Of a stretch of DNA of 25,764 bases, positions 2,272 through 25,764 are shown piece by piece; within the stretch, counting starts at the first letter, position 1; each line of letters begins with the position of its first letter. This DNA is from a virus. The position numbers and the translations under genes are program-made. The notes beneath the pieces are model-generated. The model saw nothing but the letters and a program-made list of their open reading frames with translations. It did not search any database and was not told where the DNA came from. Where the stretch lies: the UHGV virus genome UHGV-0116607; one strand, given 5' to 3'.

Positions 2272-3315
2272 ATGGCAAAACCGGACTGGGGAGACCTCCA
2301 AAAACGGTTCCTGTCCGAGCATGCCAAAACCGGCATTTCTCCCAAAGAATGGTGCGAAGCGCAGGGACTGAATTACTCGACTGCAAAGCGCTATATCAAA
2401 ATTGCGAATGGTAGTGCGAATTCGCAAAAGAAAAGTGCGAATAAAACTGCGAATTCGCAAAAGGCGGATCATGCGAAAAGGAGTGTAAAGCCAGAGCCTG
2501 AGGCGCAAAAAAAAACTGCGTCAGAGTGCTCAATGCCTCCTCCTTCAGCTCCAGATGATTTCGGACTTTCCGACCAGCAGATGATATTTGCACAACACGT
2601 CGTCGATGGGAAAACCCGAGTAGATGCATATCGCCTTGCCGGTTATGCGGGGACGGGAAATGCCGCCTATGTGACTGCAAGTCAGCTCCTCAGAAACCCT
2701 AAGGTTTCACGCTACGTGCATCACCTGCGTAATGAGCGACAGAAGCGATACGCTGCAGAACTCGATGATGTGATCGGTCAGTTGACCGCAATCATTAACG
2801 CTGACCCAAACGAGATATCTCAATACCGTCGCGTTAACTGCCGGTACTGCTGGGGAAGCGATCACAAATATCAATGGCGAGATATCGCCGAGCAGCTATC
2901 CGCTGAGCGCAAGGCTGAATCGGATGGTACCGCGCCGCCAGATACATCCGGCGGAATTGGCTTTGTCGACAACGCCGATCCAAATCCTGAGTGCCCTCGC
3001 TGTAATGGCGAAGGGGTAGGAGAACCTTTCTTTGCTGACACTCGCGATCTTGAAGGTGACGCGCGCTATCTGCTGCAAGGTGTGAAGCTGGGCAAATTCG
3101 GGATTGAAATCCTGACTGCCGACAAAGACAGCGCCCGCAAAGAGCTGGCCAGACTAATCCTTTTGCGGAATACGAGCGAGCGTCAATCGCTGCTCGATGT
3201 AGAGCGTCTCGAGTTGCAGAACGAGAAACTACGTCACGAAATTAGTGCTCTGAGAGACGGCGACAAAGATAACGCGATCGTCGTACACAACACCCTGCCG
3301 ATACCTGGAAGATGA
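2272..3315 (+). CDS. Terminase small subunit
   Basis: 347 aa; AGGTGA ribosome-binding site; directly upstream of and abutting the large terminase; N-terminal region reads as a DNA-binding helix-turn-helix segment followed by a basic linker; C-terminal coiled-coil-like region. Family assignment not verified. Confidence 0.6.
   Translation: MAKPDWGDLQKRFLSEHAKTGISPKEWCEAQGLNYSTAKRYIKIANGSANSQKKSANKTANSQKADHAKRSVKPEPEAQKKTASECSMPPPSAPDDFGLSDQQMIFAQHVVDGKTRVDAYRLAGYAGTGNAAYVTASQLLRNPKVSRYVHHLRNERQKRYAAELDDVIGQLTAIINADPNEISQYRRVNCRYCWGSDHKYQWRDIAEQLSAERKAESDGTAPPDTSGGIGFVDNADPNPECPRCNGEGVGEPFFADTRDLEGDARYLLQGVKLGKFGIEILTADKDSARKELARLILLRNTSERQSLLDVERLELQNEKLRHEISALRDGDKDNAIVVHNTLPIPGR
2401..2466. 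repeat. 33-bp tandem direct repeat (2 units, about 25/33 identical), each containing the palindrome TGCGAATTCGCA
   Basis: Units 2401-2433 and 2434-2466; perfect 12-bp palindromes at 2415-2426 and 2448-2459; additional TGCGAAT copies at 2403 and 2436; encodes the duplicated peptide SANSQKK / TANSQKA within terS. Confidence 0.6.
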
Positions 3316-6908: not shown

Positions 6909-8531
<1,623 letters not shown>

Positions 8532-19867: not shown

Positions 19868-20196
19868 GAACCTACGGCAGGAATTCAGATGGTAAGTGGA
19901 CTCTGGTCGAAACAGATGAGAATGGATTCAACGACGCGGTTTACCTGACTACTCTGGTGCAAAATCTTAAGCTTGCGCCGCAGGAGTCTCCGTTCTTCGC
20001 GAACAATGGTATTCCGGCTAACGGATCAGTAATACAGCAGGTATTGCCGACGTATTACGTTAACCGTCTGCAACAACAATTTAGTCCCTACTTTTCATCG
20101 CTACAAATTGCTTTGGTTAGTGATGATCCACCTGTTTATAACATTTCGGCGATAACCAACGCCGGTTCTAAAATTATCACAACGGTGAACGTATGA
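19864..20196 (+). CDS. Small baseplate wedge protein (gpW / gp25-like, putative)
   Basis: 110 aa; ATGA overlap; size and position between spike and J-like genes. Confidence 0.4.
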   Translation: MRTYGRNSDGKWTLVETDENGFNDAVYLTTLVQNLKLAPQESPFFANNGIPANGSVIQQVLPTYYVNRLQQQFSPYFSSLQIALVSDDPPVYNISAITNAGSKIITTVNV

Positions 20197-21611
20197 GTGA
20201 TTTGTCCGTTAGCTATGACGCAGCCGGGCCAGTGCCGAAAACATCCGAAGAGCTGCGCGCCGACTTAGTTTCAAGAGCCACAGAATTATCACCAGGCATC
20301 ACTACGGACCTCCCCGGATCACTTATCGAGGATATCGTCGGTACCGATGTTGGCGCGCTACTCATTGCCGATCAGATTCGTGTCGACCTCATCAACTCCG
20401 TAGGCCCGCTGAAAGCCAATATGTACATGCTGAACCTTCTGGCCCAGCAGTCAGGTATCAGCGAACAAAAAACTCAGGGGGCGACAACTGTACCTGTCGT
20501 GTTTGAGGGCCCGGTCGGCTTCGTAGTGTCACAGGGGTTTCTGGTCAGCGATGGCACGTATACCTACCAGATCGCCGATGCGACAGTGGTGCTGTCTTCC
20601 GGTGTCAGTTCGATGGTAACAGCCATTGCAACAAACACTGGTTCGTGGGCTGTACCGGTAGGATCGGTTAATCAGATACTGACCAGCCTGCCGTCTGGCA
20701 TTACTCTGACCTGCACCAACCCGGTTGCTGGCACCCCAGGTGGTGCGCCTGAAACTAACTTCGAATTTCGCGAGCGCGTCTGGGAAGCTCAGATGTCGAC
20801 TGTTCAGGGATATCCAGGCTTTATCCGCCAGAAATTGACAGACCTGAGTAATGTCCAGGCTCGTCTGGTTTCCGTTGTTCAGAGCGGTAATGCCTGGATT
20901 GTTATGTGTGGCGGCGGCGATATCTATGAGATGGCCGGGGCCATTTATAAGTCAGCCGGCGACATCAGCAGGCTAAAAGGGACTGACCTGAACGTCACCG
21001 GGATCACCAATGCGAACCCAGGAGTAGTAACGACCGACATCACGCACGGATTCAGCTCTGGCCAGGTAATTAATATCGCAGGTGTTACCGGCATGAGCGG
21101 GATTAATAACGTCCCTCTCACTATAACCGTGTTAAGTCCACATACTTTCTCAATAGGCATCAATACCACCTCGTCAGGCGCATGGACTGGTGGTGGAATA
21201 GTTACGCCGAACCTGAGGAATAATGTGGTTACGGTCAACGACTGGCCAGATAACTACCTGATACCGTTTGTTATACCATTTCAGCAACTGGTGACTATCA
21301 AGTTTCAGTGGGCAACCGAAAGCGCGAACTACCTGACAGACGCGACAATAGCCTCTCTGGTGACGCAACCGGTAATCAATTATGTAAACGGGATATTCGC
21401 AGGAAAGCCGATGAATATAAATAACGTCAAAGATGTCTTTCTTCAGGCGATTAACAGCACGCTCGATATGAGCCTGATTTCGACACTGAACGTTATTGTT
21501 ACGGTGAATGGTGTAATCACAGGAGTGGATGCCGGAACTAACATTATCAGCGGCGACCCTTACAGTTACTGGTTCATTGCCTCTGACGGGGTTATCGTGG
21601 ACGGGATATAA
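20193..21611 (+). CDS. Baseplate J-like protein with Ig-like insertion (putative)
   Basis: 472 aa; ATGA overlap; position in V-W-J-I order; contains the shared …HGFSSGQVINIAGVTGMSGINN…TFSIG… domain. Confidence 0.45.
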   Translation: MSDLSVSYDAAGPVPKTSEELRADLVSRATELSPGITTDLPGSLIEDIVGTDVGALLIADQIRVDLINSVGPLKANMYMLNLLAQQSGISEQKTQGATTVPVVFEGPVGFVVSQGFLVSDGTYTYQIADATVVLSSGVSSMVTAIATNTGSWAVPVGSVNQILTSLPSGITLTCTNPVAGTPGGAPETNFEFRERVWEAQMSTVQGYPGFIRQKLTDLSNVQARLVSVVQSGNAWIVMCGGGDIYEMAGAIYKSAGDISRLKGTDLNVTGITNANPGVVTTDITHGFSSGQVINIAGVTGMSGINNVPLTITVLSPHTFSIGINTTSSGAWTGGGIVTPNLRNNVVTVNDWPDNYLIPFVIPFQQLVTIKFQWATESANYLTDATIASLVTQPVINYVNGIFAGKPMNINNVKDVFLQAINSTLDMSLISTLNVIVTVNGVITGVDAGTNIISGDPYSYWFIASDGVIVDGI

Positions 21612-21612
21612 T

Positions 21613-22317
21613 ATGCTTGAAGATATCATTAAGTCTTACTTGTATACGCAGTATAACGACGATGATGATCTCCAGGCGTTCGTCACTGCGTATAACTCCA
21701 TGGCCCAGGAAATTTATTCATGGATGATTAACGCCAACCTTCCGATATTTGTCGGAGGGTATAATGCTGGTGACCAGTTAAAATGGATTGCCCGCGGGAT
21801 TTATGGCGTTAAGCCGCCGGTGCTGGTCAGTGGGAAGCGAACCGTTTACGGCCCTTACAACGCCGTCCTGTTCAACCAGTTACCATTCAATGGCAGAAAG
21901 GTAGTTAATCAGTCAGAGCAGGTTGTCGTTTCAGATGATCTTTTTAAGCGCATCATGACGTGGAATTTCTACAAAGGTGATGGGTATTACTTTACCATCC
22001 CATGGTTAAAGCGTCGGATAATGAGATTTCTTACCGGGGTTGATGGCGTTGACGTCGTTAACGATCAGAGGTGGAGTATTTCGGTTCTTTTTTCTGATTC
22101 TGGAGCGAGCATATCGATCATCAAAGGGTACAGGAAACTCACCGATGCCTCCATGTTCAATAACTTTTCCTACAATTCACAGACGCTTAATCAGAAGAAA
22201 AGCCTTCTGATAAAAAGTACGAACTACGAATATGCATCATTGTTCAAACAGGCCTTTGATAGCGGCCTGCTTCATATGCCATTTTATCAGCCTGTTACCG
22301 TAACCATTATCGGCTAG
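21613..22317 (+). CDS. Baseplate / tail-fibre-proximal protein (gpI-like, putative)
   Basis: About 234 aa from ATG 21613 (one nt after the upstream TAA); the ORF track's longer 21529 start would overlap the J-like gene by 83 nt. Confidence 0.4.
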   Translation: MLEDIIKSYLYTQYNDDDDLQAFVTAYNSMAQEIYSWMINANLPIFVGGYNAGDQLKWIARGIYGVKPPVLVSGKRTVYGPYNAVLFNQLPFNGRKVVNQSEQVVVSDDLFKRIMTWNFYKGDGYYFTIPWLKRRIMRFLTGVDGVDVVNDQRWSISVLFSDSGASISIIKGYRKLTDASMFNNFSYNSQTLNQKKSLLIKSTNYEYASLFKQAFDSGLLHMPFYQPVTVTIIG

Positions 22318-22555
22318 AGTTATCCCGGCGATCTATTGCCATGTCAGTGTAATACTTAAGACACTGGCATATAACAAGCAACATGATAATGGTAAAGAAC
22401 AGAGCGGCGCTGAACTTTATATTTTCAAATGGTGGGATTCCTTCCTGAATCCACATGTTGAAGATTAAAGCAATAAGGAAAGCCGAAAGCAAAATTGTTA
22501 TTGCGCTAACTGATGATAAAAGAAATTTTGTAATAGCAACTGACAGATTATTCAT
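22307..22555 (-). CDS. Small hydrophobic membrane protein (82 aa, two predicted transmembrane helices), opposite-strand accessory gene
   Basis: Only clear minus-strand gene outside the invertible segment; markedly AT-rich; GAGAGGG ribosome-binding site before ATG; hydrophobic stretches LLSSVSAITILLSAFLIALIF and ALFFTIIMLLVICQCL; extended -10-like TGgTAAAAT about 30 nt upstream on the minus strand. Confidence 0.5.
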   Translation of the reverse strand: MNNLSVAITKFLLSSVSAITILLSAFLIALIFNMWIQEGIPPFENIKFSAALFFTIIMLLVICQCLKYYTDMAIDRRDNSSR

Positions 22556-22592: not shown

Positions 22593-22597
22593 TAAGA

Positions 22598-22621
22598 ACC
22601 CGCCTTGAGCGGGTTTTTTGT
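22598..22621 (+). terminator. Intrinsic terminator immediately upstream of the tail fibre gene
   Basis: ACCCGC-CTTGA-GCGGGT hairpin followed by TTTTTTGTT; about 20 nt before the tail fibre ribosome-binding site (GGAGGA). Confidence 0.55.
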
Positions 22622-22642
22622 TGCCCAAATCCCGGAGGATAA

Positions 22643-23593
22643 ATGGCACTCACACTTTTAGCTGCCAACAATGCGCAGACTGTGCTGGCGGCAGGAATTA
22701 GCGCATCAGCAACTTCTTTGACTGTTAACTCAGGAACCGGATCACTGTTTCCTGCGCCATCAGACGGAGTAAGTTTTTTTAAGTTAACCCTGATTGATGC
22801 GGCAACCGGGCAACTCACCGAAATCATGCATGTAACCGCGCGCACTGGTGACACCATGACGATCGAACGCGGCCAGGAGGGAACGACAGCCCGCGCATGG
22901 TCAGCGAATGATATCGCAGCAAACATGATGACCGCCGGCACTCTTAACTACATCCTGGACAATTTTCAACCCTTAGATGCAACCCTAACGGCATTGGCTG
23001 GGCTGGCAACCGGTGCAAATAAACTCCCGTATTTCACTGGAACTGATACAGCTGCGCAGACTGATTTAACTTCTGTTGGCCGTGACATTATTGGGAAAAA
23101 TACTATTGCTGACATTCTCACATACCTTGGTTTGGGAGAAGGTTCGGCATTACCCGTTGGTGTGCCTGTCCCGTGGCCTTCCGCCACTCCGCCAACAGGC
23201 TGGCTGAAATGCAACGGGGCTGCTTTTTCGGCTGAAGAATACCCGGAACTGGCAAAGGCTTACCCGACAAATAAATTGCCTGATTTACGCGGTGAATTTA
23301 TTCGTGGCTGGGATGACGGACGTGGTGTGGATGCCGGGCGACAATTATTATCTTCACAGGGGGATGCAATAAGAAATATTGAGGGATTCGCAGATGGCGG
23401 GATCGGCATGTCTTTTGATGCAATCAGAGGGGCTTTTTACGATGCAGGAACACGATCAGCGACAATGGCGAATAACACAACTGCTATAGGCAAAACCGAT
23501 GACCTTGGATTCGACGCCTCTCGTGTCGTGCCAACAGCTAATGAAAACCGTCCACGTAACATCGCCTTTAATTATATTGTGAGGGCTGCATAA
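22643..23593 (+). CDS. Tail fibre protein (constant N-terminal part + invertible C-terminal variable part with tail-collar-like domain)
   Basis: 316 aa; GGAGGA ribosome-binding site; C-terminal region has the tail-fibre collar signature (…GWLKCNGAAFSAEEYPELAKAYP…LPDLRGEFIRGWDDGRG…); a hix/gix-like recombination site lies within the coding sequence at 23115-23140. Confidence 0.8.
   Translation: MALTLLAANNAQTVLAAGISASATSLTVNSGTGSLFPAPSDGVSFFKLTLIDAATGQLTEIMHVTARTGDTMTIERGQEGTTARAWSANDIAANMMTAGTLNYILDNFQPLDATLTALAGLATGANKLPYFTGTDTAAQTDLTSVGRDIIGKNTIADILTYLGLGEGSALPVGVPVPWPSATPPTGWLKCNGAAFSAEEYPELAKAYPTNKLPDLRGEFIRGWDDGRGVDAGRQLLSSQGDAIRNIEGFADGGIGMSFDAIRGAFYDAGTRSATMANNTTAIGKTDDLGFDASRVVPTANENRPRNIAFNYIVRAA
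23115..23140. repeat. Left recombination site (hix/gix-like 26-bp site) inside the tail fibre gene
   Basis: TTCTCACATACC-TT-GGTTTGGGAGAA: two 12-bp half-sites around a 2-bp core; 15 bp (23127-23141) is a perfect inverted copy of 24944-24958. Confidence 0.6.
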
Positions 23594-24186
23594 TGAAACC
23601 TGTTTTTGATGAAAATGGGCTGGCTACAGTACCGGGTAATATGCGTTGTTTTTATTATGAGGCAGTTACGTATGAATATACTGGCTGGTCTGATGAATAT
23701 ATTAATACTGGCGTAAGTATGCCCGCCTGTTCCACTGGTATTGACCCGGGCGAATACATTCCGGGAAGAGTGGCAGTATTTACGGGTAAGGGATGGAGCC
23801 ATGAAGAAGACCATCGCAATGAGACTGTTTACTCAACAGAAAATGGCGTAGCTGTTACAGTGGATTATATCGGTGCCATCAAAGACGGTTATGTCACGCT
23901 TTCACCGTTAACGCCATACGATAAATGGGATGGTGAGAAATGGGTGACGGATACCGAGGCACAGCATAGCGCCGCACTAGACGCGGCAGAAGTAAAGCGC
24001 CAGTCGCTGATTGATGCTGCAATGGCTTCCATCAGTCTGATTCAGCTGAAATTACGGGCCGGGCGGAAGCTGACGCAGGCAGAAACCACCCGACTTAACG
24101 CTGTGCTGGATTACATTGACGCGGTGGAGGCAACAGATACCAGCCCCGCGCCTGATGTCATCTGGCCTGAACTGCCGGAGGCGTAG
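23593..24186 (+). CDS. Tail fibre assembly protein (U-like)
   Basis: 197 aa; TAATG overlap with the fibre gene stop; C-terminus …LDYIDAVEATDTSPAPDVIWPELPEA matches the conserved tail-fibre-assembly C-terminal signature. Confidence 0.75.
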   Translation: MKPVFDENGLATVPGNMRCFYYEAVTYEYTGWSDEYINTGVSMPACSTGIDPGEYIPGRVAVFTGKGWSHEEDHRNETVYSTENGVAVTVDYIGAIKDGYVTLSPLTPYDKWDGEKWVTDTEAQHSAALDAAEVKRQSLIDAAMASISLIQLKLRAGRKLTQAETTRLNAVLDYIDAVEATDTSPAPDVIWPELPEA

Positions 24187-24597
24187 GCCATTCAATATCT
24201 GGCGCACTGGAAGTATCGACCAGTTCCAGTGCGCCAGATAATCCAGCCACAAATTATATTGCACCAGTTCCTCACCTTTCAGGCGACCAATCGCCGCTTT
24301 ACCAGGCCATTGCTTACTGTTTATGTATTCGTTGACCTGATTAATCAATTGCTGCTTTTTCAGTTCGGCTGCGGCAATTTGTTCCTCATGAGTTGGCGGT
24401 GGAATATCAATCCATGCAGGCATTCCGTCGATGACACCTCTGTATTTTCCTTCTGGTGCTTCCTTCATAAATTCGGCGGCAACAGTGTCGTCAATTTCGA
24501 TTCCATCATCGGGCCATTCGCCGGATTCCTGATAAGCGATTTTAAGCTCCACAGGGAAAAACGCATTTTTATCGGCACTGAAAATATATTTCTGCAT
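24052..24597 (-). CDS. Alternative tail fibre assembly protein (U'-like); apparent frameshift near the 3' end (possibly a pseudogene or homopolymer sequencing error)
   Basis: ATG at 24597; as read the frame runs to 24052, but the conserved C-terminal signature LELVDTSSAPDIEWPTPP is encoded in a different frame (encoded at about + 24180-24225, stop near 24160); a single missing G/C at about 24234-24235 would restore a product of about 145 aa. Confidence 0.5.
   Translation of the reverse strand: MQKYIFSADKNAFFPVELKIAYQESGEWPDDGIEIDDTVAAEFMKEAPEGKYRGVIDGMPAWIDIPPPTHEEQIAAAELKKQQLINQVNEYINSKQWPGKAAIGRLKGEELVQYNLWLDYLAHWNWSILPVRQILNGLRLRQFRPDDIRRGAGICCLHRVNVIQHSVKSGGFCLRQLPPGP
24196..24240. repeat. 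17-bp perfect inverted repeat with 11-bp spacer at the convergence point of the two tail fibre assembly genes
   Basis: TATCTGGCGCACTGGAA (24196-24212) … TTCCAGTGCGCCAGATA (24224-24240); lies just downstream of the U-like stop and inside the 3' coding region of the minus-strand U'-like gene. Confidence 0.7.
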
Positions 24598-24599
24598 TT

Positions 24600-24958
24600 C
24601 TACCGTCCTATCGAAATATAACTGAATCTGTATTGCTGTGAGATATCACTGGTTGCCACACGCCACGCTGAATTACTGATATGTTCAAAATTTACAGACA
24701 AAACCTGCGGGGCAGGACTCGACGGGTCTGACTGAACGGCATCAGACATAACACTGACTGAAACCATCGGCTGATTAGGGAATGGTATAGGGAAGTGTCC
24801 ACTGATAAAGCGGGTCGTGTTTCCTGAAAAAGTGCCAAACTGAACAATATATCCACCTGGTAGCCTGAACCATCCCGAACCAGAAGCGAATGCTCCCATA
24901 TCCGGTATCTGATTATCTCCTGTGCCCACATCCCTTTTCGCCGCTTCTCCCAAACCAA
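24600..24958 (-). CDS. Promoterless alternative tail fibre C-terminal cassette (S'v-like), expressed only after inversion
   Basis: Minus-strand ORF in frame with the fibre constant region across the recombination site (…GLGE|AAKRDVGTGDNQIPDMGAFASGSGWFRLPGG…); stop 2 nt before the U'-like ATG; no start codon or ribosome-binding site of its own. Confidence 0.6.
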
Positions 24959-24970
24959 CCTTTTTTATAA
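24945..24970. repeat. Right recombination site (hix/gix-like 26-bp site) upstream of the invertase gene
   Basis: TTCTCCCAAACC-AA-CCTTTTTTATAA; from memory closely resembles the hixL-type consensus; inverted relative to the left site. Confidence 0.6.
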
Positions 24971-25000
24971 CCATCAAAAATCTGGTGATGCTTCGCCGTT

Positions 25001-25023
25001 TCTCCTGTTTTCATAACAGGAGA
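25001..25023 (+). promoter_or_regulatory. Hairpin / palindrome covering the invertase ribosome-binding site
   Basis: TCTCCTGTT (25001-25009), loop TTCAT, AACAGGAGA (25015-25023); the 3' arm contains the Shine-Dalgarno AGGAGA, 7 nt upstream of the ATG. Confidence 0.4.
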
Positions 25024-25029
25024 AATCCC

Positions 25030-25578
25030 ATGATTTACGGTTATGCCCGAGTATCAACAAACCACCAGGACACTGAATTGCAACTAACGGCGCTCAAGTC
25101 AGCGGGTTGTGAGAAAATTTTTGAAGAGCATGCCAGCGGGAGGAAATCGAATCGGCCGGTTCTAAAACGGCTGATCGCCACTATGCAGCCGGGGGATGAA
25201 CTGGTGGTCTGGAAGCTGGACAGGATAGGCCGCAACGTTCTGCATGCGCTGTTGATGTTCCAGCAGTTACAGGAAAAGGGTATCAACTTCCGCAGTATTA
25301 CCGATGGCGTGGATCTCAAAACAGCCAGCGGCCGCTATAACTTTCGTAACATCCTTTCCGCAGCACAATATGAATCTGATCTTAATAGCGAACGTACCTT
25401 AGCAGGGCTGGCCGTAGCCAGGGCAAAAGGGCGAGTTGGTGGTCGCAGGCCTAAGTTCACGGATGAGCAATGGCGGGAAATGGGGGAGCGGATGGCAACC
25501 GGTGAATCACGACAAAGCGTATCAAAAACGTATGGAGTAGGGCTCTCAACTCTGTATAAAAAGTTTCCAGCTAGCTGA
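25030..25578 (+). CDS. Site-specific DNA invertase, serine recombinase (Hin/Gin/Pin/Cin family)
   Basis: 182 aa; N-terminus MIYGYARVSTNHQD with the catalytic Ser in the resolvase/invertase motif; C-terminal helix-turn-helix (…SVSKTYGVGLSTLYKKF); adjacent to the invertible segment. Confidence 0.9.
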   Translation: MIYGYARVSTNHQDTELQLTALKSAGCEKIFEEHASGRKSNRPVLKRLIATMQPGDELVVWKLDRIGRNVLHALLMFQQLQEKGINFRSITDGVDLKTASGRYNFRNILSAAQYESDLNSERTLAGLAVARAKGRVGGRRPKFTDEQWREMGERMATGESRQSVSKTYGVGLSTLYKKFPAS

Positions 25579-25599
25579 TAACGGGAAAGAAACAGAGAA

Positions 25600-25640
25600 G
25601 GGCACAAATATTGTGTACTTTAATGTGCCCTTTAATTTAT
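25600..25640 (+). terminator. Putative terminator after the invertase gene
   Basis: GGGCACA-(17 nt)-TGTGCCC followed by TTTAATTTATT; long loop, so moderate confidence. Confidence 0.35.
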
Positions 25641-25764
25641 TGATTGGTGGTTGAATTGTTCGTAACTTTTTGATTTAAGTGCAAATTTCTAATAAATTAG
25701 AACACTTTCTTAAAAGACTTTCTCTTCCAGAACTTCTCTAACCTGTGTTATTATTAACACAGAT

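Follow-up and report, generated by a model that had tools for sequence, protein, structure and literature searches.

Loss of a single bulged base frameshifts the silent tail-fibre assembly gene of an invertible prophage cassette and leaves a perfect palindrome

The virus genome UHGV-0116607, a stretch of 25,764 nucleotides that was analysed at full length and is referred to below as the window, contains an invertible tail-fibre cassette with two convergent genes for tail-fibre assembly proteins (tail-fibre chaperones). The gene on the minus strand, here called tfa', serves the alternative fibre tip and is frameshifted at a perfect 17-bp inverted repeat. The features of the locus are the following, with coordinates in the window.

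22643-23593, plus strand: tail-fibre gene, made up of a constant part as far as the left crossover site and then, within the segment, the variable tip Sv (collar domain)
23115-23140: left 26-bp crossover site TTCTCACATACC-TT-GGTTTGGGAGAA, within the tail-fibre gene (15-nt perfect inverted repeat)
23593-24186, plus strand: intact tfa, 197 residues, currently in the expressed orientation (assigned by open reading frame and Pfam), annotated tfaE in some E. coli relatives
24052-24597, minus strand: frameshifted tfa', encoding 120 native and 61 out-of-frame residues (181 in total)
24158-24232, minus strand: displaced native C-terminal coding part of tfa' (ALELVDTSSAPDIEWPTPPAVQAR), with its stop codon at 24158-24160, corresponding to positions 112-131 of the Pfam profile Caudo_TAP
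24196-24240: perfect 17-bp inverted repeat; at this place the intact allele has a 17-bp stem interrupted by a 1-nt bulge (a quasi-palindrome)
24233/24234: site of a 1-nt deletion, where relatives carry T on the plus strand and A on the minus strand, the middle base of the Asp codon GAC
24600-24957, minus strand: silent alternative tip S'v (gp53-like C domain), which lacks its own start codon and, once inverted, continues the frame of the constant part through a shared GLGE junction
24945-24970: right 26-bp crossover site TTCTCCCAAACC-AA-CCTTTTTTATAA, the inverted partner of the left site
25030-25578, plus strand: intact serine DNA invertase of the Pin/Gin/Hin type, 182 residues (Pfam Resolvase, 3.6e-39; HTH_7, 1.5e-9)

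Judged by its sequence, the segment is a host-range switch of the Mu G, P1 C and e14 P type, as this type is described in PMC4406740 and PMC12529663, and all tested features of such a switch were found. Two inverted crossover sites with 2-bp cores flank the segment, and homology with other prophages begins and ends exactly at these sites. From the open reading frames and Pfam matches, the constant 5' part of the fibre gene lies outside and two 3' parts lie inside in opposite orientation, each with its own tfa gene: Sv and tfa on the plus strand in the expressed orientation, S'v and tfa' on the minus strand and silent. Relative to the invertase gene, 39 related loci have the orientation of the window and 21 are flipped (including L037, L029 and L050), and the flipped locus L037 carries an invertase 100% identical to that of the window.

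The open reading frame of tfa' covers positions 2-111 only of the Caudo_TAP profile, while positions 112-131 (LELVDTSSAPDIEWPTPP) are encoded in another frame, at 24158-24250, and no single reading frame of the gene holds the complete domain. Thousands of relatives of the 1.4-kb region were found in complete E. coli genomes, and three were fetched for alignment. The minus-strand gene of these three is annotated as 'tail fiber assembly protein', is 441 nt long and encodes 146 residues (WP_001174920 / WP_001174916); it ends at the equivalent of window position 24158 and overlaps the convergent plus-strand tfa by 29 nt, as the displaced C-terminal part overlaps the 3' end of tfa in the window. 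The intact orthologue WP_001174920 ends in ...NLWLDYLDALELVDTSSAPDIEWPTPPAVQAR and carries the conserved C-terminal motif DTSxAPDIxWP, which in the window tfa' is out of frame. Aligned with its relatives, the window lacks exactly one base, a T on the plus strand between 24233 (G) and 24234 (C), so that CTGG-A-CGCA on the minus strand of the relatives reads CTGGCGCA in the window; the missing base is a lone T/A between G and C and is not part of a homopolymer. The tfa stop codon on the plus strand (24184-24186) lies 10 nt upstream of the hairpin, and tfa is untouched by the deletion.

An earlier note, made from the letters of the window alone, had proposed that tfa' is frameshifted and that its conserved C-terminus lies in another frame. 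The split of Caudo_TAP across two frames bears this out, and so do the homologues, among which the conserved form is the 146-residue protein ending in ...DTSSAPDIEWPTPPAVQAR and not the 181-residue read-through form. The same note had suggested that one extra G/C in a homopolymer would fuse the two frames into a protein of about 145 residues; a base is indeed missing at that point, but it is the T/A at 24233/24234, and the true length of the orthologue is 146 residues. As translated, the frameshift costs Tfa' its final 26 residues and puts 61 unrelated ones in their place, the lost part lying within the conserved C-terminal domain. PMC9608196, citing North et al. 2019, describes Tfa proteins as modular: the variable N-terminal domain attaches to the fibre, and the C-terminal helical domain, which is conserved, drives trimerisation and assembly. 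The chaperone that serves the alternative fibre tip is probably dead. As the segment now stands, tfa' is silent, and the deletion has no effect on the phage.

The palindrome at this site was recovered by a repeat scan as a perfect inverted repeat of 24196-24212 (TATCTGGCGCACTGGAA) and 24224-24240 (TTCCAGTGCGCCAGATA), with 17-nt arms and an 11-nt spacer, exactly where it had been noticed before. It is the sole long perfect close-range inverted repeat of the whole window, and about 9e-5 such repeats are expected in a random sequence of 25.7 kb, in agreement with the earlier judgement that it is too long to be due to chance. The hairpin energies of the window allele are -21.0/-20.2 kcal/mol as DNA and -31.9 kcal/mol as RNA, and those of the intact allele are -18.1/-17.3 and -28.1 kcal/mol, respectively, with z values of about -8 for both alleles.

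In the intact allele the minus-strand arm reads TATCTGG-A-CGCACTGGAA, which is the 17 nt of the window plus one bulged A, and the allele folds to the same hairpin with a single-base bulge, the bulged base being the one that is lost in the window. Its deletion yields both a 17/17 perfect repeat and a -1 shift of the reading frame; the frameshift and the palindrome are one and the same event. A random 1-nt deletion would fall on the bulge with a chance of about 1/441 within the gene and 1/25,764 within the window. Elsewhere in the 1.83-kb invertible segment (about 23124-24960) there is 100% identity to E. coli 1332KP, and outside the crossover sites the two sequences are unrelated; the cassette has undergone no other change and is therefore not in general decay. 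Of the three readings offered in the earlier note (a decayed silent cassette, a homopolymer sequencing error or a functional palindrome), the first is supported. The note had not recognised that the palindrome and the frameshift arose by one mutation, the deleted base being the bulge of a quasi-palindrome that is present throughout the family.

Quasi-palindromes are documented mutational hotspots, at which the nascent strand switches template and copies the other arm, so that the repeat is made fully or more nearly perfect, often with a frameshift as the result (PMC7202029, PMC5941160). Precedents include the T4 rIIB and yeast CYC1 cases of Ripley 1982, the thyA hotspot of E. coli (Viswanathan 2000, Dutra & Lovett 2006) and the lacZ QP5/QP6 reporters (PMC7202029). 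By sequence, the intact tfa' allele belongs to this class, as it has a stable bulged stem and the change in the window is exactly that predicted from copying of the other arm. Like other quasi-palindrome mutations, it made an imperfect repeat perfect through the loss of a non-complementary base and thereby gave a frameshift, and a stem of 17-18 bp with a short spacer resembles the 18-bp lacZ quasi-palindrome reporter (PMC7202029). Because the change is the exact predicted product, a template switch during replication is the likely cause of the deletion, and loss of chaperone function is its likely consequence. In the tfa' family the codons for YLDALE and TSSAPDI form the 17-bp hairpin, with a single bulge held in place by the reading frame. 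During replication the nascent strand would have copied the opposite arm of the quasi-palindrome, as in the Ripley model, and this single event would have removed the bulged base, creating the perfect 17-bp palindrome together with the -1 frameshift. After inversion the alternative fibre tip would then lack its chaperone, and the switch would probably be left with one working state. Whether the switch took place on the leading or the lagging strand is not inferable, because the segment itself inverts.

Several observations weigh against this attribution. Complete E. coli genomes, 5,426 in number, were searched with a 93-nt query, which was placed at 3,124 sites with none identical. A 36-mer across the deletion junction had no match in them, and neither had a hypothetical +1 allele in which the bulge is copied into the other arm; the intact 37-mer, used as a positive control, was found at 2,062 places in 1,646 of these genomes. 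Neither the -1 allele nor the symmetrical +1 allele is thus present among some 2,060-3,100 copies, and there is no evident natural hotspot, unlike the established cases; the one found here is known solely from the comparison of natural sequences and is an allele of apparently single origin. The frameshifted protein forms a cluster with a single member, which indicates one origin and not recurrence. Selection against the broken gene could equally account for the rarity of the -1 allele. A mechanism is not observable from sequence, and a coincidental non-templated deletion at the bulge is conceivable, if unlikely; the loss of function of Tfa' is likewise a prediction.

One alternative, which we hold to be unlikely, is that selection maintains the hairpin as a functional element where the two chaperone genes converge (an RNA 3'-end, stability, attenuator or protein-binding element), of which the perfect form would be an improved version, the frameshift of tfa' being either collateral or advantageous by locking the host range. 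In order to assess the hairpin across the family, relatives were gathered comprising 80 viral contigs encoding Tfa' relatives, 13 contigs with the exact intact 46-mer and further loci. The extra base is present at 99/99 homologous sites in the fetched loci. Conservation of the hairpin was judged by folding each allele, as a fixed-register count of pairs understates it where GCG>GCT shifts the bulge. All 22 distinct intact tfa' alleles fold to a hairpin with a one-base bulge (-10.8 to -18.4 kcal/mol), and the bulge is either the A or, where GCG has become GCT in the other arm, the adjoining C, moved by one base. Simulation with synonymous codons for YLDALE and TSSAPDI gave a mean of 9-10 of 17 pairs, with a probability of about 1e-5 to 4e-5 for 17/17, and the paralogous plus-strand tfa family reaches 8-11 of 17 pairs only. 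The self-complementarity of the tfa' family is far beyond what the protein requires, which speaks for a selected hairpin, as do the retention of the bulged form in every allele even where the bulge is shifted, two pairs that changed on both sides, the position of the hairpin (in one orientation 10 nt past the stop codon of the expressed tfa, in the other close to the end of tfa') and the persistence of the frameshift allele across several samples and flank contexts.

This evidence is offset by the covariation analysis, in which overall scores were not above those of shuffled controls, and by uncompensated mismatches in common alleles (TAT>TAC, GCA>ACA). As for termination, the GC-rich stem of an intrinsic terminator is present, but no T-run follows the stem on either strand and the terminator scan made no call; the perfect form is extremely rare and occurs only in the frameshift allele, and the earlier proposal of a functional element finds no support as an explanation for the perfection of the palindrome. 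Homogenisation by template switching has earlier been proposed as the builder of bacterial inverted repeats (PMC5941160), and its repeated action accounts for the excess complementarity without any function. A hairpin maintained by selection and one built by such homogenisation are not told apart by these data. In its most developed form, which we regard as unlikely, the bulged hairpin would be a conserved, orientation-independent RNA 3'-end, stability or attenuator hairpin of P-segment-type switches and would curb read-through into both the silent cassette and the gene for the invertase; codons would be constrained so as to preserve it, with the reading frame forcing the bulge, and the perfect allele would be a selected variant that strengthens the element and locks the phage, or a host-domesticated cassette, in one fibre state. 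If true, this would account for the persistence of the allele and its travel between phage backgrounds. As a separate observation, the most divergent tfa' allele (L044:3349-3414, with 88% identity at the protein level) has two paired synonymous changes, GCA>GCG and AGT>AGC, by which the hairpin is kept, and this is the only clear compensatory pair that was seen.

An ordinary spontaneous 1-nt deletion without a template, in a decaying and unselected prophage gene, would have hit the bulge by coincidence. Prophage genes do decay, tfa' is silent in this orientation and no recurrence was seen at the site across thousands of copies, all of which would suit such an event. Against it, just one of the 441 positions of the gene makes the palindrome perfect when lost, single-base losses outside homopolymers are rare while quasi-palindrome bulges are documented hotspots, and the 1.83-kb cassette is otherwise unchanged. 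We hold this explanation to be improbable.

A sequencing or assembly error would mean that the base exists in the real DNA and was dropped at the hairpin by the sequencer, the error correction or the assembler. The window contig has low coverage (cov_4.36), hairpins can disturb polymerases, and the allele was absent from all isolate and reference collections scanned: the deletion 45-mer had no match in the GTDB species representatives, in IMG/VR or in the JGI metagenome contigs, and the intact 46-mer was found on 13 viral contigs. An exact-protein look-up, however, placed the 181-residue product on five contigs from five ENA metagenome assemblies, one of them the window. The frameshift-allele contigs are as follows.

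ERZ651884: NODE_981_length_25764_cov_4.36, the window itself
ERZ917598: ERR1578677, human gut
ERZ27229554
ERZ919371: ERR2017777, human gut
ERZ28577266: FENG16-1, SAMEA4378286

All five contigs carry the perfect palindrome and the deletion, and their invertible segments are 100% identical. The samples come from different projects, with contig names in three styles (NODE_, k-prefixed and scaffold), and two of the loci, L187 and L188, from two different samples, are 100% identical to each other over 3,985 nt. The occurrence of the allele in five assemblies excludes a random sequencing error in practice. The homopolymer error considered in the earlier note does not hold, as a lone T/A with G on one side and C on the other was lost, and five metagenomes, each assembled on its own, share the allele. 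Normal assembly of the intact allele on hundreds of other contigs (700) makes a systematic artefact unlikely. Every k-mer size given in the contig names also exceeds the 17-nt length of the arms, and collapse of the arms in a de Bruijn graph would therefore not be expected. Taken as a whole, an error of this kind is very improbable. Programmed ribosomal frameshifting, which would restore full-length Tfa' from the shifted gene and for which a strong hairpin at the shift point might speak, can be set aside: there is no slippery heptamer at CTG GCG CAC, the shift site lies inside the hairpin and not upstream of it, and all other family members use one frame.

The deletion allele is thus real and circulates in human-gut metagenomes. 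All five copies lie on one cassette haplotype, which is rare in isolates, 1332KP alone being identical; this, with the single-member protein cluster, points to an apparently single mutational origin rather than a recurrent hotspot. The left flank of L187 and L188 differs from that of the window and is about 92% identical to a prophage tail region of E. coli Nissle 1917 (host-specificity protein J, DUF6453), and locus L189 has the left flank of the window with a different right flank. The cause is either a move of the mutated cassette from one prophage to another or a chimeric joining of some contigs across the shared 1.8-kb repeat. The 1.83-kb cassette (23124-24960) is 100% identical, bar one base, across three backgrounds, namely the P2-like prophage of 1332KP, a prophage with a lambdoid-type tail in two metagenomes (L187, L188) and the myovirus of the window, which suggests exchange of the cassette between prophages at the crossover sites.

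The closest known system is the P segment of e14 in E. coli K-12 (stfE/tfaE/tfaP/stfP with PinE; PinQ/PinR invert it as well), whose inverted repeats TTGGTTTGGGAGAAGG, as given in PMC12529663, are identical to the 15-nt core shared by the window sites. Like the P segment, the cassette measures about 1.8 kb, leaves the constant part of the fibre gene outside, holds two tips and two convergent tfa genes, adjoins a small serine invertase and occurs in both orientations among the relatives of the window; unlike e14, it resides in a myovirus about 80% identical to Klebsiella RothC/Chronis and has one chaperone gene frameshifted. An anti-T2 role is reported for the e14 inversion products (PMC12529663). 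Broader relatives of the type are the invertible segments Mu G (Gin), P1 C (Cin) and Salmonella H (Hin). Both tfa genes of the window match Caudo_TAP (PF02413), as do the phage chaperones lambda Tfa and Mu U/U', with the difference that the motif of the window tfa' is out of frame.

The remainder of the window encodes terminase, portal, capsid, sheath, tape measure and baseplate proteins. Its head and tail genes are about 80% identical to those of the Klebsiella phages RothC, RothD and Chronis, and complete E. coli genomes match the phage body at 78-85% only. Over positions 24965-25764, which hold the invertase gene and what follows it, identity to E. coli chromosomes is 99.9%, and in these the invertase gene lies beside yciI and tonB. 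From these matches, the window carries the late-gene end of a myovirus prophage adjoining yciI in an E. coli-type chromosome, ending at the junction of prophage and chromosome. A relative that is close over the whole prophage and has an intact tfa' was not found, and the locus with the nearest constant part of the tail fibre (L103, 98%) carries a different tfa' cassette. Between the last gene of the baseplate region and the tail-fibre gene, an 82-residue hydrophobic open reading frame without a PHROG match is present on the minus strand (22307-22555), and a 77-residue open reading frame occupies the same position in L187/L188; the region could be a moron-like insertion. On the plus strand, a GC-rich stem followed by a T-run (AACCCGCCTTGAGCGGGTTTTTTGTT) lies at about 22594-22622, just upstream of the tail-fibre start. 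The 472-residue baseplate wedge protein (gpJ-like, 20193-21611) has relatives labelled 'ubiquitin-activating E1 FCCH domain-containing protein' (Pfam PF16190), a label unusual for a baseplate. A 539-residue protein of the head module (6912-8531, phrog_6216) has weaker matches to an N-terminal NUDIX hydrolase and then to a head maturation protease; it looks like a NUDIX-protease/scaffold-like fusion, in line with the annotation in Klebsiella phage Chronis.

No new kind of element is needed to describe this locus, which combines a probable case of a known mutation mechanism with a known cassette family. It offers a clean natural case of a quasi-palindrome that the reading frame keeps from perfection by one base; once the palindrome is 'corrected' the gene is lost, and a conspicuous perfect palindrome can accordingly be the scar of a mutation and not a regulatory site. 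For annotation, tfa' is to be treated as a frameshifted pseudogene and the palindrome as neither a terminator nor an operator. The invertible switch of this prophage is suggested to have a single working host-range state, and one identical 1.8-kb host-range cassette is common to unrelated prophages: a P2-like prophage, one of lambdoid type and the myovirus described here.

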